The position numbers were made by a program, and so were the translations under genes. Below the pieces are notes generated by a model. It searched no databases, had not been told where the DNA came from, and saw only the letters and a list, made by a program, of their open reading frames with translations. Of a stretch of 44,294 bases of DNA, positions 4,400 through 32,759 are shown piece by piece. How positions within the stretch are numbered: the first letter of the stretch is position 1; each line of letters begins with the position of its first letter. Origin of the DNA: Candidatus Doudnabacteria bacterium (GTDB lineage: Bacteria > Patescibacteriota > Doudnabacteria > UBA920). The stretch covers positions 1 to 44,294 of the forward strand of contig JAHFJI010000001.1 in NCBI GenBank assembly GCA_023245955.1, written 5' to 3'.

Positions 4400-4485
4400 T
4401 GGTGCCCAGGGAGGGACTCGAACCCTCAATCTCTTACGAGCCCAGGATTTTAAGTCCTGTGCGTATACCATTCCGCCACCTGGGC
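4400..4485 (-). tRNA. tRNA-Leu(UAA), class II, CCA encoded
   Basis: The reverse complement GCCCAGGTGGCGGAATGGTATACGCACAGGACTTAAAATCCTGGGCTCGTAAGAGATTGAGGGTTCGAGTCCCTCCCTGGGCACCA folds as a cloverleaf. The anticodon loop is CTTAAAA. Confidence 0.9.
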
Positions 4486-4495
4486 AGATGTTTTT

Positions 4496-4570
4496 TGGAG
4501 GTGCGTGTGGGAGTTGCACCCACGCATGGCGGTTTTGCAGACCGCAGTGTTACTACTTCACCAACGCACC
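4496..4570 (-). tRNA. tRNA-Cys(GCA)
   Basis: The reverse complement is GGTGCGTTGGTGAAGTAGTAACACTGCGGTCTGCAAAACCGCCATGCGTGGGTGCAACTCCCACACGCACCTCCA. The acceptor pairs GGTGCGT/ACGCACC and the anticodon loop is CTGCAAA. Confidence 0.9.
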
Positions 4571-4631
4571 CATGGCTTAAAGCCCTCAAATTATAACGAA
4601 TTTTATAGCTCTAGGGCAATAGCTGTGTTAT

Positions 4632-4655
4632 AAAAAACAGCCCAGCCAAGGGCTG
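4632..4655 (-). terminator. terminator downstream of the 4673-5323 gene
   Basis: On the minus strand: CAGCCC-ttggct-GGGCTG followed by TTTTTT. Confidence 0.5.
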
Positions 4656-4672
4656 AGCCGTTTTAGATTTAT

Positions 4673-5323
4673 TTAGTTAGCCAAGGCTAATTCTTTGTTT
4701 ATAATGGTACCAGTAGTTGTGGTGTTTAGCTTAGCAAGTCTAGTAGCTTCGGCTTTGGCTGTAAGCTCGTTCATTTCTTTTTCTACCTTTTCACAGCCAC
4801 GTAACCAGTTTGGTGAACCTGGCACTACGTATACCTTTAACTTCTTTTTACAAGTATTGTACTTGTCTTTATAAATAGGTTTTTCAAGTAAGTCACTAAC
4901 AGCTTTAAAGCCGTCGTAGGGAGTGGTAAATTGTCTCCATTGGCTGTGGCCAGGTTTTACACCTACACTACCACAGTTAAAGTTTGCAGCCCGTTTACAG
5001 TAGTTGCTCTCCACAAAAGTGATACCAAGGGCATGTTGCCACTGTGGAAGAGTAACTATCTGATCTGCGTATGGTGCAAGTGGAGAACCTTTGGACTCTA
5101 GATAGTCTTGTAGAGACTTTACTAGTTCGTCGTTACTGGTTATATCGCTCATGCTTAAGCCTGTGTTTAGCGCATCTGGTTTAAGCTCAAACACCATTAC
5201 ACTATTGTTGCTTGCTATTGGTTCTGAAGCGAGGCTGGCGTGTGGGAAGATAAAACCGATTACAGGAATAAACAAGCTAATAGCTAGTATATGTATTTTA
5301 GATGTTAGGTTGGGAGTTTTCAT
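4673..5323 (-). CDS. secreted hypothetical protein (signal peptide)
   Basis: 216 aa. The N-terminus MKTPNLTSKIHILAISLFIPVIGFIFPHASLASEP looks like a Sec signal. No family recognised. Confidence 0.6.
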   Translation of the reverse strand: MKTPNLTSKIHILAISLFIPVIGFIFPHASLASEPIASNNSVMVFELKPDALNTGLSMSDITSNDELVKSLQDYLESKGSPLAPYADQIVTLPQWQHALGITFVESNYCKRAANFNCGSVGVKPGHSQWRQFTTPYDGFKAVSDLLEKPIYKDKYNTCKKKLKVYVVPGSPNWLRGCEKVEKEMNELTAKAEATRLAKLNTTTTGTIINKELALAN

Positions 5324-5677
5324 TTTGGCAATAACTCCTTTCAGTCTGGGTAAGGGTTTTATCCTTTACCTTTAATGCATTAGCCTAACTCTTGAGCGGT
5401 GCGGTATGAGTGAGCCAATAATAAAAGCGCTCTTTTGGAGCACTTCTTATGACAGGAGTATACATAATTAGGGGCTTTTGGTCAAGTCTTTATTGCCAGT
5501 TCTAGCTTTATATAAGCCATAAATCGTTTTTTTGCTCGCGATAATGCTCTAAAAACACTGTCAATAGCCAAGTCAGTTTGACTTATCTTTATAAATCTAT
5601 CTACTTTTACACTTTATGGCTTATACATGCCATATATTTGATGTAAACTTAGTAATTTTTGGCTATATTCACCAAAA

Positions 5678-5708
5678 TCAAAAACCAGCACTCATAGCTG
5701 GTTTTTGA
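5678..5708. terminator. perfect 12-bp stem hairpin with flanking A/T runs (bidirectional terminator-like)
   Basis: TCAAAAACCAGC-actcata-GCTGGTTTTTGA. Confidence 0.45.
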
Positions 5709-5792
5709 TTTGTGCACGTGTAGATGCAAAGTATCCTGAAGCCTATATCAGACCTACTACTGAGTTGTTTTATCTAATCCTCTCTACACTAC

Positions 5793-5833
5793 AAAAAAAA
5801 TAAAAGACATCCACTAAAGTGAATGTCTTTTAT
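5793..5833 (-). terminator. terminator ending the 5835-5997 RNA-like region
   Basis: ATAAAAGACAT(C/T)CAC stem with a TAAA loop, followed on the minus strand by a T8 run. It is near-identical in design to the hairpin at 5998-6038. Confidence 0.55.
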
Positions 5834-5834
5834 T

Positions 5835-5997
5835 TGGGGCGGGTAAGGGGAATCGACCCGCCCACGGCTATGTTCAATGCGCTACGCTTATTTCACATAA
5901 CGCCTAACGCGAGCCCGCCACTTGCATTGCTCCAAGTATTCGCAATGCATCCCACAAAGCCGGGACCGTTCCCGTTCGATTCTTCTTACTCCTTTCC
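5835..5997 (-). ncRNA. unclassified structured RNA / tRNA-Gly-derived element
   Basis: ORF-free and bounded by two terminators. Its 3' end GGGTCGATTCCCCTTACCCGCCCCA copies the 3' end of the neighbouring tRNA-Gly, with one T missing from the T-loop. Internal hairpins include GCATTGC/GCAATGC. The 5' end (GGAGTAAGAAGAATCGA) can pair with the 3' end. Confidence 0.35.
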
Positions 5998-6038
5998 AAA
6001 AAGATAAAAACCACACCTAAAGGTGAGGTCTTTATCTT
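5998..6038 (-). terminator. terminator after tRNA-Gly
   Basis: AAAGATAAA(A/G)ACC(A/T)CACC stem with a TAAA loop and a T-rich tail on the minus strand. Confidence 0.55.
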
Positions 6039-6112
6039 TGGAGCGGGTAAGGGGAATCGAACCCCTATCCCCTCCTTGGCAAGGAGGAGTTCTACCATTG
6101 AACCATACCCGC
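6039..6112 (-). tRNA. tRNA-Gly(GCC)
   Basis: The reverse complement is GCGGGTATGGTTCAATGGTAGAACTCCTCCTTGCCAAGGAGGGGATAGGGGTTCGATTCCCCTTACCCGCTCCA. Confidence 0.9.
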
Positions 6113-6282
6113 TCGTCACAGTTTGCTCCAAGTTTCAAGTTTTGCCTTTTAGGCAAAAGCATTTCACTTTCCGCAACTATTCCTCTAACTTTTACGCTTA
6201 ACCTCACAAAGCTTCAGCCCAAGTGTAAAAGTTTATTCAAACAATTTCTGGTCGAAGACCATGAGCGAGTCTTCGAGTCGAA

Positions 6283-6357
6283 TGGTGCCTCGGGTCAGAA
6301 TCGAACTGACAACGCAAGCCTCTTCAGGGCTTCGCTCTACCATTGAGCTACCGAGGC
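6283..6357 (-). tRNA. tRNA-Phe(GAA)
   Basis: The reverse complement is GCCTCGGTAGCTCAATGGTAGAGCGAAGCCCTGAAGAGGCTTGCGTTGTCAGTTCGATTCTGACCCGAGGCACCA. Confidence 0.9.
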
Positions 6358-6386
6358 TGGTTTTCTAAAGCTTCTAACTATTGCTT

Positions 6387-6466
6387 GGTGGACCCGCTGA
6401 GCGGGTCTAACACCACGCTAATCACGCTGAGCGTGATTGCCAGTACGCTAAGCGTACTAAGCGTGG
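6387..6466 (-). repeat. three tandem small hairpins of one design in the tRNA-Val/tRNA-Phe spacer
   Basis: The hairpins are GACCCGCTGAGCGGGTC, AATCACGCTGAGCGTGATT and AGTACGCTAAGCGTACT. CCACGCT/AGCGTGG encloses the last two. Confidence 0.5.
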
Positions 6467-6539
6467 TGGACGATACAGGACTCGAACCTGTGACATCTTC
6501 GGTGTAAACGAAGCGCTCTACCAACTGAGCTAATCGTCC
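6464..6539 (-). tRNA. tRNA-Val(UAC)
   Basis: The reverse complement is GGACGATTAGCTCAGTTGGTAGAGCGCTTCGTTTACACCGAAGATGTCACAGGTTCGAGTCCTGTATCGTCCACCA. Confidence 0.9.
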
Positions 6540-6639
6540 TTATGGCTTGAGTATTATACTAAATCACTAAAAATAAATCAATCTAGTTTACTTGCTATAT
6601 AGGCAGTTTATTCATATAATATCAAGGCAATTGAAGCTT

Positions 6640-6726
6640 GCCCAGGTGGCGGAACTGGTATACGCGCATCCTTGAGGTGGATGTGGGAGCAATCCCGTGG
6701 AGGTTCAAGTCCTCTCCTGGGCACCA
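6640..6726 (+). tRNA. tRNA-Leu(GAG), class II
   Basis: GCCCAGGTGGCGGAACTGGTATACGCGCATCCTTGAGGTGGATGTGGGAGCAATCCCGTGGAGGTTCAAGTCCTCTCCTGGGCACCA. Confidence 0.9.
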
Positions 6727-7171: not shown

Positions 7172-7262
7172 AAAAAAATTCCGAAGGAATTAGGGGCGAA
7201 ACCCACCCGTATTCCTCCCCAGACCCCTCCTACGGGCGGGAAAACAACCGAGGCAAGTTCCT
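7172..7262 (-). ncRNA. hairpin-plus-terminator module, third (diverged) copy of the inner end of the 408-bp repeat at 29.5/31.8 kb
   Basis: The minus strand reads CCCGCCCGT[AGGAGGGGTCTGGGGAGGAAT]ACGGGTGGG, then AATTCCTTCGGAATTTTTTT. The 21-nt loop is identical to the one at 29496-29516. The stem differs but still pairs, with one G-U on this strand only. Confidence 0.4.
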
Positions 7263-7290: not shown

Positions 7291-10254
7291 GTGATCAGAG
7301 CACCAAATAAAGAATTGTTTGTTATTGTTTTTGCGTTTTATTCCAATAGCAAAAATAGAAGTATGCTTGGTACAACCTTAGAAAAAAAATCAATCTCGTT
7401 TTTTATTTTGCTGTTTTTATTCTGGCAGACGTGTGTGGCCGGCTTTTTTTTATTTAGTGTTAAACCAGCTAGCGCTACAGTTGTAACTAACGATACGACT
7501 GGAAATTATACAGATGATTTTGCAGATGGAACTGGCCTTTCCAGCACAAGCAATGCCGCTGTAGATGTGGCAAGCGGAACTGTAAAATTAACTAATGGTA
7601 GTAGCGGTTTTACCGCGCCATTTAACACTAGTGGGTACGTTATTATAAATAAAATTGTACCAGTCAGTGTTGCCAAGTGGGGGACGGTCACCATAACACC
7701 AACAACACCAACCGGTACAACTGCGGGGGTGCAAGTTATAGACGAAGAAGGAACACTTTTTTCCGATTCGCTTGTGCCGGGAAACAGCGCCGGTATTACC
7801 ACTTCGTCTTTTAGTATTTCGGATTTGTCCGTAACCAGAACATCCACGCCCAATAGCAATAGCAGTAATGCAAAGTTTGGCCGCATAGCTTTTAAAATAC
7901 TACTCACAACTTCGGATACATCTGTTACTCCTTCGGTAAATAGTTTCGCCTTTTCTTGGACAGTCAGCCAGGGAGACTTAAGCGCTTCGCCTATAGCAAG
8001 CACAGCCTGGGCTGCCCCAAGAGGTAATAACCAGGCTACTGCTCGCGGCACTTACAATTCTAGCGGAATGTATCCGGCACTCCGCTGGAAAAAAACTATT
8101 GGAATTGATAGTGGCGGACCTTTTGTTCGGGGTGTTGGCGACACTGTGTACTATAAAACTTCGGGTGGCATTGTCACTTGGCCCACCGTTAACGACGGTA
8201 CTTTAACGTCTATAAATAAAAATACTGGAGCAACCCAGTGGAGTAGAGTTTTTTCCGGTAATGCTTTTACCAATACAGATTTTACTCTCTCCGCAAACGG
8301 AACTATATATCATTCAGACCAATTCCATGATATGTTCATGGCTTTTGACGGAACAGACGGTAGTCTTAAATGGACGTATCAATTTACGAGCGGGCATAGT
8401 AATACGGAAGCATCTATAGGTTCAGACGGAACTATTTACACCATACGTACCGACGATAGCACTTTCGTTAACGTGTATGCCTTTAACCCAGACGGCTCGG
8501 TTAAATGGATAAAGACAGTTGTACCAAATGGGAGTAAGTTTTCTGGAGGACCAATTTCTATTGGCAGTGATGGCACAGTCTATTTTGTTACCCAAACGTA
8601 CGACAACAGTTTTAACAATACAAATAACGGACTTTTGTACGCGCTTAACCCGACCGATGGCTCTACAAACTTTACCTATGCTACCGGTGATTCGAGCCTC
8701 TATCCGGTTATAGACTCGAGTGGCGTAATTTATGTTGCCAATACTTCTTTAGCCTCCTTACCCAAGAGCATAACCGCGGTAAATTCAAATGGAACACTTA
8801 AGTGGGTGTATAGTTTAGGCACGACCACCCAGTCTTGGAGTTCGCTTGCCTTGCGACTAGACGGCGTGCTACTAGCAGAACGTGTTACCTCCACCTATCC
8901 CACAACCGGTGGTCTGGTAGAAGCTATAAACACTTCGGACGGTACACTTGCTTGGTCAAAACCATTTAGCGACAACAATGGAATTTTTACCCACGTCTTT
9001 ATGACTAATGCGTCTAATGGTTTTTACCGTTCCAGTGTGTTAATACCTGCGAGTGCATCGTTTTCCTTTTTCGACTCGAGCGGGAATAACAAGTGGAACA
9101 TAGTAAGAGACGGCGGAATTGGGTCTAATACTATTATTTACCAGTATGCCATGGAAGATGAAGACGGCAATTTATACATTAATGCAAACCATGCTGGGAT
9201 AGAAGACGTAATTGTTAACACGGTGCCTTGGACTTTGCAAGCTTCTACTAGCACGGTAGCGCCCATCCACGGCGATGCAATTCTATTTTCTGTTACTACT
9301 TCCATGCTGCAAACAAACCCATTAACTGGAGATAGCAATCAAATGCAAGCTGTTATGGATAATGGCACCAAAGTGCCACTTACTTATTCTTCAACAAATA
9401 GTTCAGGTAACACCGTTTGGTCTAGTGCCTATTACACTATTCCAGGTAGCATGGCCTACGGAAGGCATGCGTATACTGTTGAGGCAAACGCAGCTGGGCT
9501 CCAGACAGATGTCCCAGTTAATTTTGCTTCTCCAGCCACTAACTCAAGTAACACTGGTTTAACTACAACTGGCGAGTTTAGTGTGCAAGCAAGTGGCAGT
9601 GGTTTGCCGTCTGGCGCGTATGAACTCCCTAAAATTCCTATTGGAGGCTTTGCTATAGTAGTGAACCATGGAGAGGGTGTAGCAGCGGACAGGAAAGTAA
9701 CGCTACACTTTAATGCCGGTGCAGATGTTAAAAAAATAGCTCTTTCTATGTCTAGCGACTTTGTTGGAGCAAGCCAAGAGCCTTATACAGAAAGTAAATT
9801 GTGGGATGTATGTTCTATCTATTCCGGAGCAGTGGTTAAGCCACTGTGCCCAGATGGTAATTACACGATATATGCAAAGTTTTATACAGCTTGGGGACAA
9901 ACATCGCCTGTTGTTTCAAAAGATATAATTTTAAAAACAGTGGTGGACAAGGTACATAATAAAAAAGTGGCTAGCGCCACTATTCATGCGCCGGCTCAAT
10001 ATGGAGAATTTACGCGCGATTTAAAATACGGTTCCAGTAATCAGCAGGTTATGTGGCTACAAAATGTATTAAAGAACTTAGGCTATTTTCCAGTGCTTGT
10101 TAAGTCGAGCGGTAATTTTGGTGCTATTACAAGGCAATCTTTAAAAAAGTTTCAGTGTGCAAGAAAGATTGCCTGCACAGGCGCGGGTTTAAAAAGTGAG
10201 TATGGCCAAGTGGGCGCAAAAACTAGAGACATACTAAACCAAGTAGTGCAATAA
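7291..10254 (+). CDS. large secreted protein with beta-propeller (PQQ-like) repeats and a C-terminal peptidoglycan-binding domain
   Basis: 987-aa ORF. The likely true start is the ATG at 7363 (MLGTTLEKKSISFFILLFLFWQTCVAGFFLFSVKPASA, a signal peptide). DG(S/T)(L/V)KW / GT(I/V)Y repeats recur. The C-terminus VMWLQNVLKNLGYFP...GNFGAITRQSLKKFQ is PG_binding_1-like. Confidence 0.8.
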   Translation: MIRAPNKELFVIVFAFYSNSKNRSMLGTTLEKKSISFFILLFLFWQTCVAGFFLFSVKPASATVVTNDTTGNYTDDFADGTGLSSTSNAAVDVASGTVKLTNGSSGFTAPFNTSGYVIINKIVPVSVAKWGTVTITPTTPTGTTAGVQVIDEEGTLFSDSLVPGNSAGITTSSFSISDLSVTRTSTPNSNSSNAKFGRIAFKILLTTSDTSVTPSVNSFAFSWTVSQGDLSASPIASTAWAAPRGNNQATARGTYNSSGMYPALRWKKTIGIDSGGPFVRGVGDTVYYKTSGGIVTWPTVNDGTLTSINKNTGATQWSRVFSGNAFTNTDFTLSANGTIYHSDQFHDMFMAFDGTDGSLKWTYQFTSGHSNTEASIGSDGTIYTIRTDDSTFVNVYAFNPDGSVKWIKTVVPNGSKFSGGPISIGSDGTVYFVTQTYDNSFNNTNNGLLYALNPTDGSTNFTYATGDSSLYPVIDSSGVIYVANTSLASLPKSITAVNSNGTLKWVYSLGTTTQSWSSLALRLDGVLLAERVTSTYPTTGGLVEAINTSDGTLAWSKPFSDNNGIFTHVFMTNASNGFYRSSVLIPASASFSFFDSSGNNKWNIVRDGGIGSNTIIYQYAMEDEDGNLYINANHAGIEDVIVNTVPWTLQASTSTVAPIHGDAILFSVTTSMLQTNPLTGDSNQMQAVMDNGTKVPLTYSSTNSSGNTVWSSAYYTIPGSMAYGRHAYTVEANAAGLQTDVPVNFASPATNSSNTGLTTTGEFSVQASGSGLPSGAYELPKIPIGGFAIVVNHGEGVAADRKVTLHFNAGADVKKIALSMSSDFVGASQEPYTESKLWDVCSIYSGAVVKPLCPDGNYTIYAKFYTAWGQTSPVVSKDIILKTVVDKVHNKKVASATIHAPAQYGEFTRDLKYGSSNQQVMWLQNVLKNLGYFPVLVKSSGNFGAITRQSLKKFQCARKIACTGAGLKSEYGQVGAKTRDILNQVVQ

Positions 10255-24248: not shown

Positions 24249-24566
24249 ATGGATAATTTCTTTAGCCAAATAGAGTTTGAGTGGGACGTTGGAAATATCC
24301 GCAAAAACTTTGAAAGACATGATTTGGATACAAGACGAATAGAAGAAGCTTTTCTTGGGTTTAACATCATGATGCCGGATGAAAAGCATAGTACGACTGA
24401 AGTGCGTAACTTACTAATTGGGAGGGATAATCTTAACAACAAGTTGTCGGTAATATTTACCATTAGATATGGCAAAGTGCGAGTTATTTCAGCTCGTGGT
24501 GCTAACAAGTTAGAAAGAGAGTTATATGAAAAAGCATTTAAAAAGTATTCCCAAATTCAAAAGTGA
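24249..24566 (+). CDS. brnT: BrnT-family (DUF497) toxin
   Basis: 105 aa. The N-terminus FEWDVGNIRKNFERHDLDTRRIEEAF is typical of BrnT. Confidence 0.75.
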   Translation: MDNFFSQIEFEWDVGNIRKNFERHDLDTRRIEEAFLGFNIMMPDEKHSTTEVRNLLIGRDNLNNKLSVIFTIRYGKVRVISARGANKLERELYEKAFKKYSQIQK

Positions 24567-24804
24567 GCATGAGGAGTTTAAGTTTTGGCAGACAGCAGAT
24601 ACCAGGGAGTATTTTGATTACTCAAAGGCACAACCGGGTTATTTCCCCAACCTTAAACCATCTTCCTCACCAATCTCAATACGTTTTCCGGACACCATTC
24701 TCTGGCGACTTAAAGAGCGCGCCAATCAAATGGACGTGCCCTATCAGTCGCTCATAAAGCACTATGTCGTCCGCCAACTTGAGCAGGAAACACGAGGAAA
24801 ATAA
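24526..24804 (+). CDS. brnA: BrnA-family antitoxin (C-terminal RHH)
   Basis: 92 aa with IPKFKSEHEEFKFWQTADTREYFD...ISIRFPDTILWRLKERANQMDVPYQSLIK. It overlaps the 3' end of brnT. Confidence 0.75.
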   Translation: MKKHLKSIPKFKSEHEEFKFWQTADTREYFDYSKAQPGYFPNLKPSSSPISIRFPDTILWRLKERANQMDVPYQSLIKHYVVRQLEQETRGK

Positions 24805-25055: not shown

Positions 25056-25271
25056 ATGTCCACACTCACTATACGAATAGATGATAAATTAAAAACTCAG
25101 GCGGCAAGGCAGGCGGCTGTGCTTGGCGTGCCACTTACTTATGTTGTGAAGAATGCTCTTATGAATTTTGTGCAGTCTAAGAAAGTGGTAATTGGTGAAC
25201 CAGAAATTGTTATTGTAGATGAAGCTATCCAGCGCAAGATGGACAAGATTGGTAAACTAATTCCCTTGTAG
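25056..25271 (+). CDS. RelB/DinJ-family antitoxin
   Basis: 71 aa. TIRIDDKLKTQAARQAAVLGVPLTYVVKNALMNFV matches the DinJ N-terminal pattern. Confidence 0.7.
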   Translation: MSTLTIRIDDKLKTQAARQAAVLGVPLTYVVKNALMNFVQSKKVVIGEPEIVIVDEAIQRKMDKIGKLIPL

Positions 25272-25273
25272 CA

Positions 25274-25654
25274 ATGAAGCTAATTATTACGACAGAAATA
25301 TATACCACAGAATTTTTACCGCACGCCCAAACGTTTAATTTAGATGTGCTAAAGTCTTCTGCCCGAAAGGCTTTGTTGGGTTTGGGCAATATGGTTAGTA
25401 CTAGCAGACGGATGCCAGGTACTGTTCTAAAAAAGATGAGTCTGATTAGCTCTGGTGGCGCAGGTCGTGTATTGTTCTTGCTACAGGTTGGTAAGGGTGT
25501 GGCAGTACTGGTTATGGTGCGGCAAAAAAACGATAAACAAATTGGTCAAAACATGGCTATTGTAAACCCACGTTTTAAAAAGTTATTGGAAAAGAATATG
25601 GATAAAATTTTAAAAGAACTAGAAGCTGGGCGTTTCCGGGAATGGCTCATTTAG
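25274..25654 (+). CDS. putative cognate toxin (RelE/HigB-like suspected)
   Basis: 126 aa beginning 2 nt after the antitoxin stop. The stretch KKMSLISSGGAGRVLFLLQVGKGVAVLVMVRQKNDKQ resembles the K..R....G.SGG.R core of RelE-superfamily toxins. Confidence 0.45.
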   Translation: MKLIITTEIYTTEFLPHAQTFNLDVLKSSARKALLGLGNMVSTSRRMPGTVLKKMSLISSGGAGRVLFLLQVGKGVAVLVMVRQKNDKQIGQNMAIVNPRFKKLLEKNMDKILKELEAGRFREWLI

Positions 25655-26224: not shown

Positions 26225-26338
26225 TCATTGCGAGGTACTCCGTGGCAATCTCGTACTTATGTTAAATTGTTAAATTGTTATTTTGTTAAATTGAAATGCA
26301 GATTGCCACGTCGTTCGCGGACTCACTCCTCGCAATGA
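26225..26338. repeat. palindromic element, GATTGCCACG family, copy 1
   Basis: TCATTGCGAGG..CGTGGCAATCT, an AT-rich loop with GTTAAATT words, then AGATTGCCACG..CCTCGCAATGA. Confidence 0.7.
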
Positions 26339-26361: not shown

Positions 26362-27087
26362 ATGAAATCTCTAGGACTAAAGCTGGAAACAAGATTGTTT
26401 AAGAGTGGGTACTCTGTTGTAGTCGGTTGTGATGAAGTTGGCAGGGGAGCGTTGGCCGGGCCTGTGGTGGCTGGAGCAGTAGCGTGGAAACCAGAATCAA
26501 GAATTAAGTCGTCCTGGACCCTGAGGGGTCCGGAGACCCTCGAAGGGAATCAAGAATTAAGTAAAATACAAGACAGTAAGCTACTCTCAGAGAGACAGAG
26601 AGAGGAGTTGGAGATTCACATCAAACATAATGCGCTGGCTTGGGGGGTCGGAGTGGTGGGTTCTGGTGTAATAGACAAAATAAATATTCACCAAGCAAAC
26701 TTACTTGCCATGGAGCGTGCAGTAAAAAATTTAATTACTAAACTTTCTAATGTTGCCGAGACGGATAAAAAATTGAAGCACAGAGAAAATATTTACTTAT
26801 TAATAGATGGCAAATTCGTATTACCCAAATGGAGCGGTGAGCAGACAGCGGTGGTGGACGGAGATGCAAAGATTTTTTCTATTGCCTCGGCATCCATTAT
26901 AGCCAAAGTCTATCGTGATAGACTTATGATGAAACTAGATAAAAAGTTTCCTGGCTATGAACTGGCTAGCCACAAGGGTTATGGTACGTCTGCTCATCGC
27001 AAGGCCATTGTGAAGAAGGGGATGAGTAAAATTCATCGTAAAACATTTTGTGGAAATATTGACGTATGGCGCTCTAAAACGGTATAG
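26362..27087 (+). CDS. rnhB: ribonuclease HII, with an ~18-aa extra segment
   Basis: 241 aa with GCDEVGRGALAGPVVAGAV and DSKLLS motifs. The spacing between them is about 18 aa longer than in E. coli RNase HII. Confidence 0.9.
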   Translation: MKSLGLKLETRLFKSGYSVVVGCDEVGRGALAGPVVAGAVAWKPESRIKSSWTLRGPETLEGNQELSKIQDSKLLSERQREELEIHIKHNALAWGVGVVGSGVIDKINIHQANLLAMERAVKNLITKLSNVAETDKKLKHRENIYLLIDGKFVLPKWSGEQTAVVDGDAKIFSIASASIIAKVYRDRLMMKLDKKFPGYELASHKGYGTSAHRKAIVKKGMSKIHRKTFCGNIDVWRSKTV

Positions 27088-27130: not shown

Positions 27131-27247
27131 TGTCACTCCGAGCAGGCCTTGCGACGTGGCAATCTGTATTTCAATTAAACATTTTAGCAACATAACAATT
27201 GAGCATAAAGACAAAGATTGCCACGTCGCAGACTCCTCAGAGTGACA
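27131..27247. repeat. palindromic element, GATTGCCACG family, copy 2
   Basis: TGTCACTC..CGACGTGGCAATCT, an AT-rich loop, then AGATTGCCACGTCG..GAGTGACA. Confidence 0.7.
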
Positions 27248-27265: not shown

Positions 27266-28870
27266 TTATATTTGGAGAGGTCGCATAGTTGGTCTAGTGC
27301 GCTGGTCTCGAAAACCGGTAGGGGCGAAAGCTTCTCGAGGGTTCGAATCCCTCCCTCTCCGCCAGAAATCGAAATCGTTTTTTGAAGCCGAAATTGGGTC
27401 GCGCCGAAGGCGCGACACTAATGCATTCCCCCCGCCGAATTCAGAATCCAAAAGGGTTTTCCACGCTCCGCGTGGTTTAAAAAGGAGTGTTCGATCTTTG
27501 ATTTCAAAGTTCGAACCGACTTTTTTGAACAGATGAAGATTTTCTTCATCTGTTCTATCGTTTGCCAATTTCACATTGGTAATATTGAGTTTTAGAAATT
27601 TTTCCGTGAGTTCGAACCGATTATTCGCTTTTTGCTCAAAAGATGATAATTTTTCCTTGAAAAGCTGTTTTTGATGTACAAGCTTGTTTTTCATGTCGCG
27701 ATATTCTTCAAGCGATAAAGAATTATCGAGATAGAGTGTCATCAGCTTTTCAATCTTGTTTTCAATTGAAAAAATTTCATCTTTTGTATTTTGAACAAAA
27801 AGCGTAGACGATTGGACTTCTGATTGCCGATCTTTGTCATTTTCGGCAATCATCCATTTTGCCCAATCGTCTGGCAAAGAAACTTTTTTGATTTCATTTT
27901 GAATTTGAGAAGTGATGATGTCCTCACGAACATATCGCTGGTCGCAAGGATTTTTCCTTTTGGTACACCGCAAATAGTTATTTCCTTTTTGTCGTTCGGT
28001 AGTAATGAAACATCCGCAGACACAATGGAAAAATCCTCTGTACAAATATGGGTGTAAACCTTTACCTTTTGGCTTAGACTTTCTCATCATCACTTCTTGA
28101 ACGGAATCAAAAAGTTTCTTTGTGATAATCGGTTCGTGTTTTCCTTCGTGAATTTCGCCACCATATCGAAGGAGTCCGCAGAAAATCGGATTTTTAAGCA
28201 TGTTATGAATATTTGAAACAGAAAGTTCTTGCTCTTTTCTTGAACGCAATCCAAGTTCATTAACCGTGTCTCTAACTTGTCGGAGCGTATATTTGCCACT
28301 TCCATAGGCCTCAAACGCTCTTTTGATATATGGCGAGCGTTCAGGGTCTGGAATGATAACTTTCTTATCACTGTCGTTTAGATACCCCACAGGAGCGTTT
28401 TGAGGCCAAATACCATCCTTCAATTTTTGACGATGACCACGCTTGATATTTTCCGACAAGTTATCTACATAATACTTGGATTGCGAAAAAGCGATTGAGA
28501 GCATGAACTTTCCTTGAGGTGTTGGATCAAACCAAAAAGTTGAAAACTTTAAATCCTTGATGACTTCGGTATCAACAAAATAAATTATTTTCCCACCGTC
28601 TACCGAGTTTCTCGCAAGTCTATCGGGGTGCCACGCTAAAATTCCGTTAGCTTCACCAGCCTCCATGCGGAGAAGCATTTCATTAAAGACTGGCCGACCC
28701 GGAATCTTGGCGGTCTGTTTTTCCACAAAAATATCAATAACTTCGATTTGCTCTTTAACCGCTAACTCCTTGAGTTCGGCCAGTTGATCCGAAATGCTTC
28801 TCACTTGCCGATCTTTGTCATCGGTAGACTTGCGAGTGTATATAAAAAACTTTTTGGTTTGATTATTCAT
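27266..28870 (-). CDS. large serine recombinase (resolvase domain, recombinase domain, zinc ribbon, coiled coil)
   Basis: 534-aa ORF with N-terminal FFIYTRKSTDDKDRQVRSISDQ and a Cys cluster CVCGC..LRCTKRKNPC. The last ~70 codons run through repeat A and antisense across tRNA-Ser, so the true stop and tail are uncertain. Confidence 0.85.
   Translation of the reverse strand: MNNQTKKFFIYTRKSTDDKDRQVRSISDQLAELKELAVKEQIEVIDIFVEKQTAKIPGRPVFNEMLLRMEAGEANGILAWHPDRLARNSVDGGKIIYFVDTEVIKDLKFSTFWFDPTPQGKFMLSIAFSQSKYYVDNLSENIKRGHRQKLKDGIWPQNAPVGYLNDSDKKVIIPDPERSPYIKRAFEAYGSGKYTLRQVRDTVNELGLRSRKEQELSVSNIHNMLKNPIFCGLLRYGGEIHEGKHEPIITKKLFDSVQEVMMRKSKPKGKGLHPYLYRGFFHCVCGCFITTERQKGNNYLRCTKRKNPCDQRYVREDIITSQIQNEIKKVSLPDDWAKWMIAENDKDRQSEVQSSTLFVQNTKDEIFSIENKIEKLMTLYLDNSLSLEEYRDMKNKLVHQKQLFKEKLSSFEQKANNRFELTEKFLKLNITNVKLANDRTDEENLHLFKKVGSNFEIKDRTLLFKPRGAWKTLLDSEFGGGNALVSRLRRDPISASKNDFDFWRRGRDSNPREAFAPTGFRDQRTRPTMRPLQI
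27274..27364 (+). tRNA. tRNA-Ser(CGA), class II
   Basis: GGAGAGGTCGCATAGTTGGTCTAGTGCGCTGGTCTCGAAAACCGGTAGGGGCGAAAGCTTCTCGAGGGTTCGAATCCCTCCCTCTCCGCCA. Confidence 0.9.
27359..27478 (+). repeat. 120-bp repeat A, left copy (starts with the last 6 nt of tRNA-Ser)
   Basis: Exact reverse complement of 29033-29152, checked base by base. It contains the GC hairpin GTCGCGCC-gaa-GGCGCGAC. Confidence 0.9.
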
Positions 28871-29032
28871 ATGCTTAAAAACCTAAAAGGGCGACCATGT
28901 TGCACCAATATTACCTTTCGGCAAAATTGAACACAGTCGCCCGTCTAGATGCTCAAGCAAATAAAAAGCCGAAAGTGTCTAATATTGGTGCATTTCAATA
29001 TTACCATTTTTGAATTTGCATTGGCAAACGAA

Positions 29033-29152
29033 AAACCACGCGGAGCGTGGAAAACCCTTTTGGATTCTGAATTCGGCGGGGGGAATGCATTAGTGTCGCG
29101 CCTTCGGCGCGACCCAATTTCGGCTTCAAAAAACGATTTCGATTTCTGGCGG
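29033..29152 (-). repeat. 120-bp repeat A, right (inverted) copy
   Basis: Exact reverse complement of 27359-27478. It ends in TGGCGG, which is also the first 6 nt of repeat B. Confidence 0.9.
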
Positions 29153-29554
29153 TGTCTATTATACAAAATTCGAACTTATTTCGAAACTAATCCCGATGAT
29201 GAATGAATTCCGCCACGCCACAGCCTCCGCTCCACGACAGCCCGCAAGGGCTGTCCTTCCGCTTCTGCTGTGTCGCTCCGTCCTCGCCTGCAACCCTGCC
29301 CATGCTTCTTTTGTTTTGCCGTGGTTTTGATTTTCTTTTTTCGGTATGGGCGTGTGCAGGCGAGGGACGGGTTTCTCCTTGAGGGAGAAACTGGCGGAAT
29401 TCAAATGCGGACTCGGTTTTGCCAAAACTATTTTCTGGGGAAAAGGATTTGGCAAAACCTCGGCTGATTTTTACTGGGGATTTCTGCCCGCGCGGAGGAG
29501 GGGTCTGGGGAGGAATCCGCGCGGGTTTCCTTTCGGATTTTTTGGCGGCGGCTA
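29147..29554 (+). repeat. 408-bp repeat B, left copy (GC-rich, highly structured)
   Basis: Reverse complement of 31782-32189. Both ends were checked base by base, and identical 98-aa and 65-aa shadow ORFs cover the middle. Confidence 0.9.
29158..29186 (-). promoter_or_regulatory. outward-facing extended -10 promoter candidate in repeat B, reading across the core toward the recombinase gene
   Basis: The minus strand reads TTTCGA-N15-TGTATAAT. Confidence 0.35.
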
Positions 29555-29589
29555 TGGATAAAAAGGCTACAAAATGCTAAAATATTCTT

Positions 29590-30780
29590 ATGAAGTATCA
29601 CGATATTACTCAACATGAAATTGAGGCTCTCAAACATAATTACAACATGTCTGACGCTCATACTCATCAATCGCAATCTCCTACGCAAGAGGAGATTGTA
29701 AAGCGATTACCCGAGCTTTGGCATGAAGCGGAAAATACTCGCCAATATGACATGGAACAGAAGTTTCTTAAAAATTTCTTTCGTGTCCAAAAACAGGATT
29801 CTTTAGTCGAAGACAACAGTCGTTGTCTTCTCGTATACGCTTCATCTATTGCAATGGTAATTACTGCAAATTATCTGATGAAGAAAAAAATGAGTGTAAG
29901 TTTAATGCACCCTTGTTTTGACAACATCACTGATATTTTGAAGCACATGGAAGTACCAATTTCTCCACTGGAAGAAGACTGGTTGCGCGATTCAGAAAAT
30001 ATTTACGAGAACCTAAAGAAAAATGTAAAAACTGACGCTCTTTTTATCGTTGACCCCAATAATCCAACGGGATTTACTTTGACAGGAACAGCAAAAGATA
30101 CTTTTGAAACAAAAAAGGGATTTTTGGAATTATTCAGATATGCAAAAGACCACAATAAATTATTGATTTTTGATTTTTGCTTTGCTTCTTTTTTACTTCC
30201 TGACCCCGATTTAGGCATATTTGATTTATATAAAGAACTTGATAATTCCGGTGCGAGTTATATTACGATTGAGGACACCGGAAAAACATGGCCACTTCAA
30301 GATACAAAAGTCGCTATTCTCACAACAAGTAAAGATATATTTGATGAAATTTACAATATCCATACCGCCTATTTGTTAAATGTTTCGCCTTTTATTTTGA
30401 ATGTAGTAAATCAATATATTTATGATTCAGAAAAAGATAATTTTGCATCAGTTTTTGATCTTTTAGAAAAAAATCGAGCATTGGCAAGAGAAGTCTTAAA
30501 AGATTCTATCCTTGAACCACTAGAACCAATTTCAAAAGTATCTGTGCTTTGGTGTAAAATAAAAGATGATTCAATTAAGGCAACTGAATTAAAAGAATAT
30601 CTAACCAAATCCGATATTCATGTTTTGCCAGGTACATATTTCTTTTGGCATGACCAAGAAAAAGGAGAACATTTTATTCGTATTGCTCTTGCCAGAAACC
30701 CCGATATTTTTGAGAAAGGAATAAAAAAACTTAGAGAAGTAATTGATAATTATGGAAAAACTCACAGCACAAAAAATTAA
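29590..30780 (+). CDS. PLP-dependent aminotransferase (fold type I, class I/II-like)
   Basis: 396 aa with FIVDPNNPTGF (the N-P-x-N-P-T-G signature) and a lysine in IEDTGKTW at the expected PLP position. Confidence 0.75.
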   Translation: MKYHDITQHEIEALKHNYNMSDAHTHQSQSPTQEEIVKRLPELWHEAENTRQYDMEQKFLKNFFRVQKQDSLVEDNSRCLLVYASSIAMVITANYLMKKKMSVSLMHPCFDNITDILKHMEVPISPLEEDWLRDSENIYENLKKNVKTDALFIVDPNNPTGFTLTGTAKDTFETKKGFLELFRYAKDHNKLLIFDFCFASFLLPDPDLGIFDLYKELDNSGASYITIEDTGKTWPLQDTKVAILTTSKDIFDEIYNIHTAYLLNVSPFILNVVNQYIYDSEKDNFASVFDLLEKNRALAREVLKDSILEPLEPISKVSVLWCKIKDDSIKATELKEYLTKSDIHVLPGTYFFWHDQEKGEHFIRIALARNPDIFEKGIKKLREVIDNYGKTHSTKN

Positions 30781-31558
30781 AGGGGTATATATTCCTCTCA
30801 TCACTCCATTTTACAAAGGAGCTTTTGATGGTGAGTCAATGAAAAAACTTATTGATTCTGTTGAGCCTTTTGTCGCTGGTTATGTCCCATGCTTAAGTTC
30901 CGGTGAAGGTACAAAATTATCTAAAGATCAATGGATTGAGGTTGTAAAAACAGTACGAGAATTAACAGATAAGCCTGTTATTGCAGGAATAAAACGCGAA
31001 ACATTGAACGAAACGATTGAGCTTGCAAATATTGCAAGTAAACTAAAATGCGAAGCGATTATTGTTCCTATATCACAACAAAACGAGGAAGAAATTTTTG
31101 ATTATCTTTCACGATTATCAAAATCGGTTTCCTTACCGATTATTATCTACAACACTGAAAAGTATCATATAGATAATATAGAATTTCTTTTAAAAATTTC
31201 TACGATTGAAAATATTATTGGTCTCAAAGATTCATCAGAAAACCAAGAATTTTTTGACCAAGCTTGTAAATTACGCGCAGAAAACAAACTAAATATTGCG
31301 ATATTACAAGGTTTAGAAAATCAACTTAAAGATTCAAAAAATTCTGATGGTTTCCTGATTTCATTAGCGAATATTGAACCTCAACTTTGCAATGATGTAT
31401 TTATAAAACCTTCCTCCGTTTTAGATGAAAAAGTGATTGATATTTTTTGGAAATATAATCTAGGTAGTGCTAATTGGTTCATTACGCTCAAAGCACTTTT
31501 ATATGAGAGAAAAATTATAAATTCTGCTGAAGAAATATCTTTAGCAATAAAACCGTAA
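30752..31558 (+). CDS. DapA/N-acetylneuraminate-lyase family class I aldolase
   Basis: The track ORF starts at 30743; the ATG is at 30752 (MEKLTAQKIKGVYIPLITPF). The Schiff-base lysine context is IIGLKDSS. It overlaps the upstream gene by 29 nt. Confidence 0.7.
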   Translation: MEKLTAQKIKGVYIPLITPFYKGAFDGESMKKLIDSVEPFVAGYVPCLSSGEGTKLSKDQWIEVVKTVRELTDKPVIAGIKRETLNETIELANIASKLKCEAIIVPISQQNEEEIFDYLSRLSKSVSLPIIIYNTEKYHIDNIEFLLKISTIENIIGLKDSSENQEFFDQACKLRAENKLNIAILQGLENQLKDSKNSDGFLISLANIEPQLCNDVFIKPSSVLDEKVIDIFWKYNLGSANWFITLKALLYERKIINSAEEISLAIKP

Positions 31559-31562
31559 AATT

Positions 31563-31784
31563 ATGGAAAAAACAACAATTACAAAATCAGAGTTTGAGGC
31601 AATGGGCAAAGAATGGACTGCACTCGATACAGAGTATGACAATTTGTTTCAAGCATTTTTGGATAATCCTCATACCAAAACACAAGAAGAACTTTCAAAA
31701 TTTAAAGCTATGCAAAGTCGTCTATATGCAATAGAACTTGAGTTATATAAAGTTGCTGAAGGTACGATGATAATTCAAGATTAG
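31563..31784 (+). CDS. small helical protein, hypothetical (RDF-like role only speculative)
   Basis: 73 aa. Its TAG stop codon is the first 3 nt of the right copy of repeat B. Confidence 0.5.
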   Translation: MEKTTITKSEFEAMGKEWTALDTEYDNLFQAFLDNPHTKTQEELSKFKAMQSRLYAIELELYKVAEGTMIIQD

Positions 31785-32189
31785 CCGCCGCCAAAAAATC
31801 CGAAAGGAAACCCGCGCGGATTCCTCCCCAGACCCCTCCTCCGCGCGGGCAGAAATCCCCAGTAAAAATCAGCCGAGGTTTTGCCAAATCCTTTTCCCCA
31901 GAAAATAGTTTTGGCAAAACCGAGTCCGCATTTGAATTCCGCCAGTTTCTCCCTCAAGGAGAAACCCGTCCCTCGCCTGCACACGCCCATACCGAAAAAA
32001 GAAAATCAAAACCACGGCAAAACAAAAGAAGCATGGGCAGGGTTGCAGGCGAGGACGGAGCGACACAGCAGAAGCGGAAGGACAGCCCTTGCGGGCTGTC
32101 GTGGAGCGGAGGCTGTGGCGTGGCGGAATTCATTCATCATCGGGATTAGTTTCGAAATAAGTTCGAATTTTGTATAATAGACACCGCCA
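31782..32189 (-). repeat. 408-bp repeat B, right (inverted) copy
   Basis: See 29147-29554. It ends in GACACCGCCA, 21 nt before the next gene start. Confidence 0.9.
32150..32178 (+). promoter_or_regulatory. outward-facing extended -10 promoter candidate driving the histidine phosphatase gene
   Basis: TTTCGA-N15-TGTATAAT ends 33 nt upstream of the ATG at 32211. Only 21 nt of non-element DNA precede that ATG. Confidence 0.4.
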
Positions 32190-32210
32190 TGGAATTATTA
32201 AGTCCTATAT

Positions 32211-32759
32211 ATGTCTATCCACATTACATATTTTGTTCACGGTACCACACCTGACAATGAAAAACATATTTCATCGGGCTGGAAAGACGTAGAACTTTCT
32301 CCATTAGGGGTACAGCAGTCCATAGAACTGAAAGACCAGACTAAGGGTCAAGCATTTGATGTTATCTTCTGTTCAGATTTAAAGCGAGCAGTGCAATCGT
32401 CTGAGTTAACCTGGAAAGGAATTTATCCGATTATCGTCGATGCCCGACTGCGCGAATGTAATTACGGAAAGTTGAATGGGGCATCTTCGGATATAGTAGA
32501 GCCAATGCAAGAAGCAGAGTGTCTCCACAATCCTTTTCCAGAAGGTGAGAGTTACGAAGATGTAAAAAAACGAGTTGCAGATTTTTTAAGTTTGCTTAAA
32601 TCTGAGTACGATGAAAGGCGAGTCGCGATTGTAGCACACAAAGCTCCCCAGCTTGCACTGGATGTATTGATAAAAAATAAAACTTGGGAACAGGCACTTG
32701 CAGACGATTGGAGAAAAAGAAAAGCCTGGCAACCAGGATGGGATTATACACTTAATTAA
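32211..32759 (+). CDS. histidine phosphatase (phosphoglycerate mutase-like) family protein
   Basis: 182 aa with N-terminal YFVHGTT.DN......G..D..LS..G..Q and a later AHKA pattern. Confidence 0.7.
   Translation: MSIHITYFVHGTTPDNEKHISSGWKDVELSPLGVQQSIELKDQTKGQAFDVIFCSDLKRAVQSSELTWKGIYPIIVDARLRECNYGKLNGASSDIVEPMQEAECLHNPFPEGESYEDVKKRVADFLSLLKSEYDERRVAIVAHKAPQLALDVLIKNKTWEQALADDWRKRKAWQPGWDYTLN

Follow-up and report, generated by a model that had tools for sequence, protein, structure and literature searches.

Introduction

Elements and prophages that are moved by large serine recombinases (LSRs), among them A118/LI, phiC31, Bxb1, SPbeta (SprA) and the TnpX- and TndX-type transposons, have recombinases with resolvase, recombinase and zinc-ribbon domains. 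They carry an attP of about 50 bp with an imperfect dyad, pair it with a shorter attB whose outer motif lies 5 bp closer to the centre, and insert at a specific chromosomal site, whereby attL and attR are created. The same traits were found in the subject of this report, an integrative element of ca. 4.8 kb (27365–32189) that is predicted from sequence to have inserted at the 3' end of a tRNA-Ser(cga) gene and to be mobilized by an LSR. It lies in a stretch of 44,294 nt (“the window”; contig JAHFJI010000001.1) from a Candidatus Doudnabacteria bacterium, a member of the Patescibacteria (candidate phyla radiation, CPR). These organisms make up a large share of groundwater bacteria, and their mobile elements have barely been described.

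A sequence-only reading of the window had singled out a GC-rich, 408-bp inverted repeat packed with long stems and had suggested that it was either one folded RNA of 300–400 nt or an elaborate recombination arm. The repeat proved to bound the cargo, as part of a unit of an LSR element at tRNA-Ser that contains attP and is duplicated in inverted orientation. Past the P half-site, each arm continues as a series of hairpin modules that are autonomous, have been shuffled and occur in high copy; they are under selection for base-pairing, and their loops are conserved.

Repeat architecture of the element

The features of the element, with the evidence for each, were as follows.

27266–28870, minus strand: large serine recombinase gene, with an open frame of 534 aa (Pfam, PDB relatives)
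27274–27364, plus strand: tRNA-Ser(cga) (ARAGORN, Rfam, sequence)
27359–27478: A arm, the outer copy of a 120-nt repeat (repeat finder; kept in nearly all of the 160 loci described below)
29033–29152: A' arm, the second (inner) 120-nt copy, located 5' of the recombinase gene (repeat finder)
29125–29174, minus strand: predicted intact internal attP, 50 bp, TTCGAA-N16-CCGCCA-N16-TTTGAA, with the core TGGCGG at 29147–29152 (sequence)
29147–29554, plus strand: left (inner) arm of the 408-nt inverted repeat (repeat finder)
29153–29206, plus strand: P half-site with the tail of the recombinase frame and its stop at 29204–29206, in the attP configuration (ORF 28949–29206)
29555–31781, plus strand: cargo, with a promoter-like site (29555–29583), an aminotransferase-like gene (29590–30780), a DHDPS-family gene (30743–31558) and a 73-aa ORF (31563–31784)
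31782–32189, minus strand: right (outer) arm of the 408-nt repeat, with the same modules mirrored (four-way junction 31934–32132, H2 loop 31822–31839)

The two 408-nt arms (29147–29554 and 31782–32189) were 100% complementary and were separated by 2227 nt. Their GC-richness was borne out: the GC fraction was 0.50 for 29001–29500, compared to 0.29–0.33 for the enclosed cargo, and it reached 0.58 in the central 199 nt of the arm. The repeat finder also located a second perfect inverted repeat, of 120 nt (27359–27478 and 29033–29152), that flanks the recombinase gene. The two repeats adjoin, overlapping by the 6 nt TGGCGG at 29147–29152. Because they share this core at the tRNA end, at their junction and at the right boundary, the truly repeated unit is X, 29033–29554 (522 nt), which comprises the hairpin chain, a complete attP and the C-terminal codons of the recombinase. 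Between the recombinase segment and the cargo, X is present in intact form. The second copy is split at the attP core by integration into the tRNA gene, and its halves are the outer 120-nt arm beside the tRNA (attL) and the outer 408-nt arm (attR). This layout, in which the attP unit is duplicated in inverted orientation, an internal attP is kept and the recombinase C-terminus falls within the repeat, appears to be undescribed; we know of no serine-integrase element with a counterpart of the duplicated inverted unit. A search of a plasmid database returned no match to X.

Perfect inverted repeats might also be produced during assembly, e.g. as a fold-back chimera. Both repeats are indeed 100% identical between copies, and many related contigs end within an arm. 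However, the same two-repeat layout was present in more than 60 independent assemblies from many studies, including contigs of 0.7–1 Mb labelled as chromosomes, and an artefact is considered hardly credible.

The arm was predicted to fold with −171.2 kcal/mol on the plus strand (z = −4.4) and −156.1 kcal/mol on the minus strand (z = −6.1); on neither strand was any of 100 dinucleotide shuffles as good, in keeping with the structure that had been claimed for it. The accompanying claim that the arm contains no credible ORF stood for most of its length. Protein coding was rejected there, as the ORFs are mirrored on both strands and the indels among homologues are not multiples of three. The claim did not stand for the first ~60 nt, which hold the last codons and the stop (29204–29206) of ORF 28949–29206, a duplicate of the recombinase C-terminus. 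This recombinase tail of ~20 codons, ending at 29206, is the exception to an otherwise non-coding arm.

Recombinase and attachment sites

The recombinase frame extends across the A arm and on into the antisense strand of the tRNA gene, and the recombinase gene converges on tRNA-Ser(cga). Matches were obtained to the Pfam families Resolvase (PF00239, E = 3.4e-18) and Recombinase (PF07508, E = 3.7e-16), while Zn_ribbon_recom (PF13408) scored 21.1 bits, slightly below its cutoff of 25.3. This combination of resolvase, recombinase and zinc-ribbon domains identifies the protein as an LSR. The nearest solved structures in the PDB were the SPbeta and A118 integrases, and identity to phage serine integrases was at most 26%.

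The T-loop and the 3' strand of the acceptor in the tRNA probably constitute the B half of attB. The last 6 nt of the tRNA, CCGCCA (27359–27364), are the common core, and the junction of the tRNA with P' is thus attL. The A arm carries the P' half-site (CCGCCA-N16-TTTGAA) along with the final ~40 codons of the recombinase. It also contains two hairpins, GTCGCGCC-GAA-GGCGCGAC and CCACGC-TCC-GCGTGG. At the other end of the element, the right arm terminates in the P half-site and the core CCGCCA (32184–32189), i.e. attR. The predicted hybrid sites are therefore tRNA/P' at 27359–27364 and P/chromosome at 32184–32189, with the short core CCGCCA in common; the exact crossover position is not readable from sequence.

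The outer motifs stood at regular distances from the core: TTCGAA at 16 nt in P, TT(T/G)GAA at 16 nt in P' and TTCGAA at 11 nt in the tRNA. The spacing was the same in relatives. For LSRs, the zinc-ribbon motif is reported to be 5 bp closer to the centre in attB than in attP (PMC3783163), and the shift from N16 in attP to N11 in the tRNA, being 5 bp, agrees with this published relation. The predicted attP and tRNA attB thus appear to conform to LSR attachment-site geometry.

The joint of 27364 to 32190, which would mark the empty site, was not found in Logan contigs. A circular junction is not recognizable in these contigs, since it would be equal to the internal attP. No recognizable recombination directionality factor was present among the cargo proteins, and a ~65-aa XRE-type helix-turn-helix (HTH) protein encoded by relatives is absent from the window.

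In the window, an insert of 160 nt (28871–29032) separates the A' arm from the ATG of the recombinase and carries a promoter-like site for that gene (29027–28998, minus strand). The A' arm of relatives stops ~20 nt before the recombinase ATG, and RNA and DNA contigs that skip 28871–29014/29016 confirm the short form. In the outer P half-site, an extended -10-like sequence, TGTATAAT (32171–32178), was noted by eye. It points outward and is located 33 nt upstream of a histidine-phosphatase gene (32211–32759); the element may give this downstream host gene a promoter.

Related elements in Patescibacteria

The recombinase search returned 145 relatives among GTDB species-representative genomes (nearly all of them metagenome-assembled genomes of Patescibacteria) and 309 among JGI metagenome contigs. 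Eighty loci were fetched from each set, and the resulting 160 loci were analysed. The 120-nt repeat around the recombinase gene was essentially universal, and the two-repeat layout was present in most of the loci with enough flank. Where the upstream flank sufficed, the second, adjoining perfect repeat was ~200–420 nt long and usually enclosed 1.5–5.5 kb of cargo. The P stretch is kept beside A' in the relatives, which match X from positions 4–151 to 4–174. In 128 of the 145 evaluable loci, the 3' end of the recombinase gene adjoined a tRNA-Ser gene (gct, 44; gga, 36; tga, 25; cga, 23). The dyad centre of the attachment site falls on the GC of CCGCCA, and it was considered whether such a palindromic central dinucleotide abolishes insertion polarity and so explains the inverted duplications; the idea was rejected, as the polarity was the same in those 128 loci. 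A full-text literature search did not find the element family or its layout described, and the family appears to be undescribed.

No segment in the opposite orientation was seen in ~130 loci: the recombinase always pointed toward the tRNA, and the cargo away from the recombinase. This single orientation among relatives led to the rejection of flip-flop inversion between the arms, i.e. of an invertible segment of the Hin/Gin/Pin or shufflon type. The exceptions were rearrangements with a second tRNA or arrays, not simple flips. At locus L047 (3439–5582), the recombinase segment and its 120-nt arms lie between two convergent tRNA-Ser genes (gct and gga), and there is no cargo arm. This is the arrangement expected if the internal attP had recombined with a second tRNA-Ser attB, an event that would be a chromosomal inversion. 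At L044 (1163–5623), L154 and L156, the recombinase reads directly into the P arm instead of a tRNA, and L130 (1–10258) is an array in which cargo and recombinase segments alternate. Every junction in these arrays (L130, L044, L154 and L156) is a full attP unit.

Sister recombinase families, 28–41% identical where measured, had the same double inverted-repeat layout at other tRNAs, e.g. tRNA-Ala. Their loci are L017 (5632–9062), L053 (4882–8279), L064 (5713–7375), L104 (4823–6659) and L161 (1999–3034).

The cargo is unrelated between loci, and that of the window had no homology to the cargo of its relatives. In groundwater metagenomes, the window's cargo and flanks were present at ~5x, the depth of the host, whereas word depths for the recombinase and arms were in the hundreds to thousands. 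The backbone thus represents a family with many copies, and the cargo is specific to the strain. Examples from relatives include a C5 methylase, a Fic protein, a glycosyltransferase, a cytochrome d1-type protein and an FAD oxidase. No replication or transfer gene was found in the cargo.

Cargo genes of relatives point away from the recombinase, and the first usually encodes the ~65-aa XRE-type HTH protein (Pfam HTH_3), as at L041 (3340–3560) and, equivalently, in L024, L030, L036, L044, L048, L060, L061 and L079. A promoter-like site divergent from this gene faces the recombinase across the arm, so the HTH protein is likely, judging by position, a repressor or switch. At L041, the promoter-like site (TTGGTA-N18-TATAAT) overlaps the start of the XRE gene and is directed through the arm to the recombinase.

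Hairpin modules of the arm

In the window, the arm consists in order of P, a four-way junction, H1, and H2 with a T-run. The modules are:

29204–29402, plus strand: four-way-junction module, 199 nt, with closing stem TTCCGCCACG/CTGGCGGAA; it contains a GNRA hairpin (29237–29254), a long hairpin (29278–29370) and a further hairpin (29371–29391)
29409–29467, plus strand: module H1, composed of GGACTCGG, a stem strand (29415–29426), the loop ACTATTTTCTGGGGAAAAGGA, the second stem strand (29448–29459) and CCTCGGCTGA
29487–29543, plus strand: module H2 with mini-hairpin and T-run; stem CCCGCGCGGA (29487–29496) / TCCGCGCGGG (29516–29525), conserved loop GGAGGGGTCTGGGGAGGAA, then TTTCCTTTCGGATTTTTT

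All of the helices that had been picked out by eye were recovered. They are ACAGCCC-GCAA-GGGCTGT at 29237–29254; CCGTCCTCGCCTGCA (29278–29292), which pairs with TGCAGGCGAGGGACGG (29355–29370) and encloses GCCCAT/ATGGGC; GTTTCTCC-ttgag-GGAGAAAC at 29371–29391; GGTTTTGCCAAA (29415–29426) with TTTGGCAAAACC (29448–29459), a pairing that also emerged from the repeat search; and the hairpin with T-run at 29487–29543. The last of these, comprising H2, the mini-hairpin and the T-run, resembles a terminator that faces inward, and the earlier view that both copies would be read toward the cargo is supported to that extent.

Alignment of the arms demonstrated that what relatives share is limited to the P half-site, which makes up the first ~55 nt, and to some blocks farther downstream. 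Additional modules were named H0 (CACGCGC-GGA-GCGCGTG), HX, and LH (a long hairpin with a G-rich or C-rich apex). The architectures encountered included H1-H2 (32 arms), HX-H2rc-LH (16), H2 only (14), H0-HX-H2rc-LH (12), LH only (12) and, in the closest relatives, H0-LH-H1-H2. Most arms of the family measure only 200–230 nt, the central 200 nt being absent, and in some H1 or H2 is missing. Contigs that skip the central 200–218 nt of the arm were also found.

Sequencing depth in the same groundwater DNA samples was uneven along the arm: ~30–100x for P, 500–1300x for the four-way junction and 2500–4900x for the H2 loop, with a sharp break at 29204–29207. Module copy number thus differed 10- to 100-fold within the same metagenome. 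The same four-way junction, which is bounded by an 11-bp inverted repeat, stands beside other att types and beside the L161 recombinase, which is only 28% identical and reads straight into the junction. A solo H2 with mini-hairpin and T7 run is located elsewhere in the window (7198–7249, minus strand), where it follows tRNA-Leu(gag) by ~470 nt and precedes a 987-aa gene at 7291 by 40 nt. Its identity to the majority H2 type is 92%; no further arm remnants were found around it, and the 60-nt H2 is all that this site shares with the arms.

Taken together, the shuffling of modules, the skipping contigs, the uneven depth and the solo H2 indicate that the arm is not one entity. The proposal of one folded RNA of 300–400 nt therefore had to be given up in favour of independent modules in varying combinations, given also the many short arms without the central 200 nt. 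The other proposal, an elaborate recombination arm, was right for the first ~55 nt, the predicted P half of an LSR attP, and not for the remainder, which is a hairpin chain.

Modules of this kind could be selfish or neutral palindromic repeats of the REP/BIME, BOX or Correia types that have built up at a non-coding site which tolerates them and that have no role for the element. A modular mosaic in which parts are gained and lost would suit such repeats, as would a metagenome copy number that is very high and exceeds that of the recombinase, the solo H2, and the 11-bp inverted repeat that bounds the junction in the manner of a miniature element. However, the modules were almost confined to arms in the 160 loci, where their order and orientation relative to the att core were constant, and their loops are far more conserved than their stems, which argues for a function beyond palindromy. 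We consider a purely selfish or neutral origin unlikely.

Selection on base-pairing

Covariation in H1 and H2 was assessed in an alignment (A1) of 20 diverse sequences. There, 95.3% of cells were paired and double changes were present in 16 of 22 pairs; none of 500 shuffles reached the observed values, and at most 51% of cells were paired in slid controls. For H1, at least seven different, fully complementary stems surround one conserved loop.

The central 200 nt had no BLAST homologue in the 160 recombinase-selected loci. Homologues of the junction were instead located with the translation of a 98-aa shadow ORF, which was compared to predicted proteins; 14 matches resulted, and the encoding contigs yielded nine DNA homologues with 72–83% identity. 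These nine adjoin different att types. The consensus fold of the 10 homologues has 55 pairs, with 94.3% of cells paired. Double changes were observed in 21 of the 55 pairs, compared to 8.0 ± 2.0 in shuffles and 2–5 in slid controls. A covariance model built from this fold (R1) scored 209 bits on both window copies and weakly detected a domain of the same shape in the closest relatives L001, L081 and L084 (E ~ 1e-5).

The hairpin stems of the 120-nt arm covary among 124 distinct arms, although they lie inside the C-terminal codons of the recombinase. For GTCGCGCC-GAA-GGCGCGAC (27394–27412 and 29099–29117), the stem was GCGCC/GGCGC, GGCGC/GCGCC or GGCAC/GTGCC, and the encoded peptide changed with it. 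Homologues with compensatory changes, on which the idea of a structured sequence had been staked, therefore exist; the conserved structure is that of individual modules, not one global fold. The loops are conserved and non-palindromic: UCUGGGGARGGA in H1 and GGAGGGGUCUGGGGAGGAA in H2, with similar G-runs in LH.

Strand, transcripts and level of action

The ratio of G-T to A-C mismatches in the stems was 14:8 for the junction (32:8 when two near-invariant G-U pairs were included), 3:3 for H1 and ~2:1 for H2. As a means of choosing an RNA strand, this asymmetry was abandoned: a fold-based count was too noisy, and the explicit stem counts were balanced or weakly inward. The small hairpin of the junction had its GNRA loop on the inward strand in six of 10 homologues.

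In the search against Rfam 15, only tRNAs reached the gathering score in the window; with the limit relaxed to E = 10, the best matches on 28900–29700 had E-values of 1–9 and scores far below gathering. The covariance-model search that had been envisaged for the arms thus returned no family, whether ROOL, GOLLD, HEARO, group I/II introns, riboswitches or others.

Transcript evidence was drawn from unstranded metatranscriptome contigs. In three metatranscriptomes from samples with abundant element DNA, the neighbouring tRNA was present and nothing was detected on the arms, so that no stable RNA from either copy is apparent. Two other metatranscriptomes had low coverage, and in them the recombinase region was at least as deep as the arms. 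RNA contigs in relatives join the 5' end of the recombinase to A' and cover A', the core and P, which suggests that the inner copy is part of the recombinase leader in typical members.

A discrete functional non-coding RNA might be made from the arm, or from the junction with H1 and H2, and might aid or regulate the recombinase, either as a cofactor or guide resembling the bridge RNA of IS110 or as a sensor or regulator of recombinase expression. The strong covariation and conserved loops are what such an RNA would display, and the GNRA loops and the excess of G-U over A-C on the inward strand (14:8, or 32:8) point the same way. The arm adjoins the recombination site, modules of the same type stand beside other recombinase families, and the closing stem of the junction includes the att core sequence (CCGCCA/TGGCGG). 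On the other hand, there is neither an Rfam match nor an evident promoter in front of the arm, the modules are dispensable (most arms being without the junction and some without H1 or H2), and the same-sample metatranscriptomes gave no RNA signal on the arms. To our knowledge, LSRs do not use RNA. Furthermore, the CCGCCA of the closing stem is constant where the neighbouring core is TGGTG (L161, L163, L165 and L169), so the stem does not track the target. A T-box-like or guide function, by which UGGCGG in the stem of the junction would base-pair to the 3' end of the tRNA or follow the att core, was rejected because CCGCCA is kept beside a TGGTG core. A discrete RNA is accordingly deemed improbable.

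The hairpins could also act as DNA, in the form of folded single strands or cruciforms. They might provide an architecture for recombination or cassette exchange akin to attC, serve an excised or imported single-stranded form as replication or priming signals, or allow a single-stranded copy to fold back into a duplex attP. Pairing is kept while stem sequence varies, as in attC, and the counts above can be taken as no strand asymmetry of G-T versus A-C. Inverted modules and flipped loops are tolerated: in L019, the CCACGC/GCGTGG hairpin has its loop in opposite orientations in the two arms, H2rc occurs inside LH, and R1 matched L053 on both strands with similar scores. Such flips fit behaviour at the DNA level. 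The arms, moreover, are always perfect inverted pairs, which gives both strands both orientations; segment boundaries often have core-like GGCGG motifs; and segment shuffling is suggested by the arrays, in which inverted copies of X bound each of the alternating recombinase and cargo segments. Against these points, LSRs work on duplex sites that are short, and no accessory DNA is involved (PMC3783163). The cargo has no replication or transfer gene that could be found, the single segment orientation in ~130 loci leaves frequent flipping without evident trace, and the motifs at the arm ends are loose. Action as DNA is regarded as doubtful.

A broader scheme would make the 320–520-bp unit (attP plus hairpin modules) the linker of a serine-recombinase cassette system in Patescibacteria. 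Recombinase and cargo segments bounded by inverted units would be combined, exchanged and relocated among the tRNA-Ser genes, of which a genome has several, with the modules as required cis-acting elements, in the guise of either attC-like folded DNA or RNA that controls or assists the recombinase. We rate this scheme as quite improbable.

Proposed role of the modules

Our tentative preference, for which we claim somewhat less than an even chance, is that the modules act in cis on transcripts, both as a structured 3' untranslated region (UTR) and terminator of the recombinase gene and as inward insulators of the cargo. The first ~55 nt of the arm are the P half-site, to which the recombinase is predicted to bind, and in the attP configuration they also supply the stop of its reading frame. 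Three autonomous, GC-rich stem-loop modules make up the other ~350 nt: the four-way junction, H1, and H2 with its T-run. With the gene joined to attP, these would form a structured 3' UTR and an intrinsic terminator of the recombinase; the excised form, the arrays and L161-type layouts would be the settings for this role. Because the arm is duplicated in inverted orientation, inward-facing terminators or insulators are proposed for the cargo at either end. The inner copy would, in most relatives, be located in the 5' leader of the recombinase as well.

Several observations are consistent with action on transcripts. The stop of the recombinase frame (29204–29206) stands exactly where the four-way junction begins. 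T-runs follow H2 toward the cargo in most relatives, and canonical inward terminators are found in both arms of L041, at the same place as H2 and its T-run.

Other observations weigh against it. When the element is integrated in the standard way, it is the tRNA and not an arm into which the recombinase reads, which limits the 3'-UTR role to the excised or array configurations. The G-T and A-C counts are about balanced and hence do not demonstrate RNA on one particular strand. A terminator scan called none at the H2 of the window, whose loop of 19 nt is large for an intrinsic terminator and whose T-run is separated from it by a weak 3-bp mini-hairpin. The conserved, non-palindromic loops suggest specific recognition, which a plain terminator would not need, and modules are flipped in places (H2rc inside LH; the loops of L019).

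Significance

The elements belong to a very widespread family of tiny elements that targets all tRNA-Ser isoacceptors and ferries single accessory genes or operons, such as those for methylases, Fic proteins, glycosyltransferases, cytochrome d1-type proteins and amino-acid enzymes. L047 suggests that the internal attP can recombine with further tRNA-Ser genes; in this way it may promote chromosome inversions and the formation of cassette arrays in reduced genomes. The hairpin modules constitute a new set of nucleic-acid motifs with conserved structure and conserved loops. For practical use, the family offers natural recombinases with a predicted attP/attB pair that would recognize the T-arm and acceptor sequence of a tRNA.

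Other features of the window

An imperfect inverted repeat of 57 nt (82%; 26257–26313 and 27152–27208) surrounds an RNase HII gene (26362–27087) just upstream of tRNA-Ser. A direct repeat of 66 nt (73%; 5794–5859 and 5998–6063), consisting of an AT-rich hairpin and the 3' part of a tRNA-like sequence, is located in a tRNA cluster (4400–6726). Beside tRNA-Ala(cgc) are two pairs of small, overlapping or adjacent ORFs that resemble toxin-antitoxin genes: 24249–24804 (105 and 92 aa) and 25056–25654 (71 and 126 aa). The former resembles a pair of the BrnT/BrnA type.

Comparison with known systems

The structured RNAs ROOL, GOLLD, HEARO/omega RNA and the IS110 bridge RNA are likewise non-coding and are tied to mobile elements or tRNA neighbourhoods, and the bridge RNA is, as the arm is here, encoded beside a recombinase and an att junction. 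The present arms differ in that they match no covariance model, have modular and dispensable parts, gave no discrete transcript and accompany a recombinase class that needs no RNA.

REP/BIME of enterobacteria, BOX of pneumococcus and the Correia repeats are also GC-rich hairpin mosaics that occur in high copy and undergo compensatory stem changes; such repeats often act as terminators or mRNA stabilizers. Here, by contrast, the modules are essentially att-proximal, have a fixed order and orientation, and have loops that are more conserved than the stems. As for dispersed copies, one solo H2 was present in the 44 kb, and the modules were otherwise in arms in the 160 loci; the high depth in metagenomes is compatible with dispersed copies and with copies in arms alike.

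Integron attC sites resemble the modules in marking cassette boundaries with a conserved structure, a variable stem sequence and variable cargo. Integrons, however, use a tyrosine recombinase that acts on folded single strands, with one attC of 60–140 nt per cassette and not long inverted pairs. The element described here is not an integron: its only recombinase is a serine recombinase, and no evidence was found that its hairpins are recombined.

Like the yeast 2-micron plasmid and plastid inverted repeats, the excised form would have two unique segments between long, identical inverted repeats that hold the recombinase target. The 2-micron plasmid differs in being eukaryotic and in using FLP, a tyrosine recombinase, whereas the present element has a single segment orientation and no replication function.

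Tycheposons of Prochlorococcus are also small elements of streamlined genomes that use tRNA 3' ends, possibly an LSR, and variable cargo (bioRxiv 10.1101/2020.12.28.424599). The present host belongs to a different phylum, and the two groups are set apart here by their descriptions, not by sequence comparison. We know of no inverted-repeat architecture or hairpin-module arms in tycheposons.

The closest match remains the LSR elements and prophages. Compared to them, the present element is small (~4.8 kb) and without phage genes, has a recombinase that is at most 26% identical to theirs, and has a cargo in which no directionality factor was identified. The final ~40 codons of its recombinase lie inside the repeat, its attP is part of a 320–520-bp unit that is present twice in inverted orientation, and the integrated form keeps a complete internal attP.

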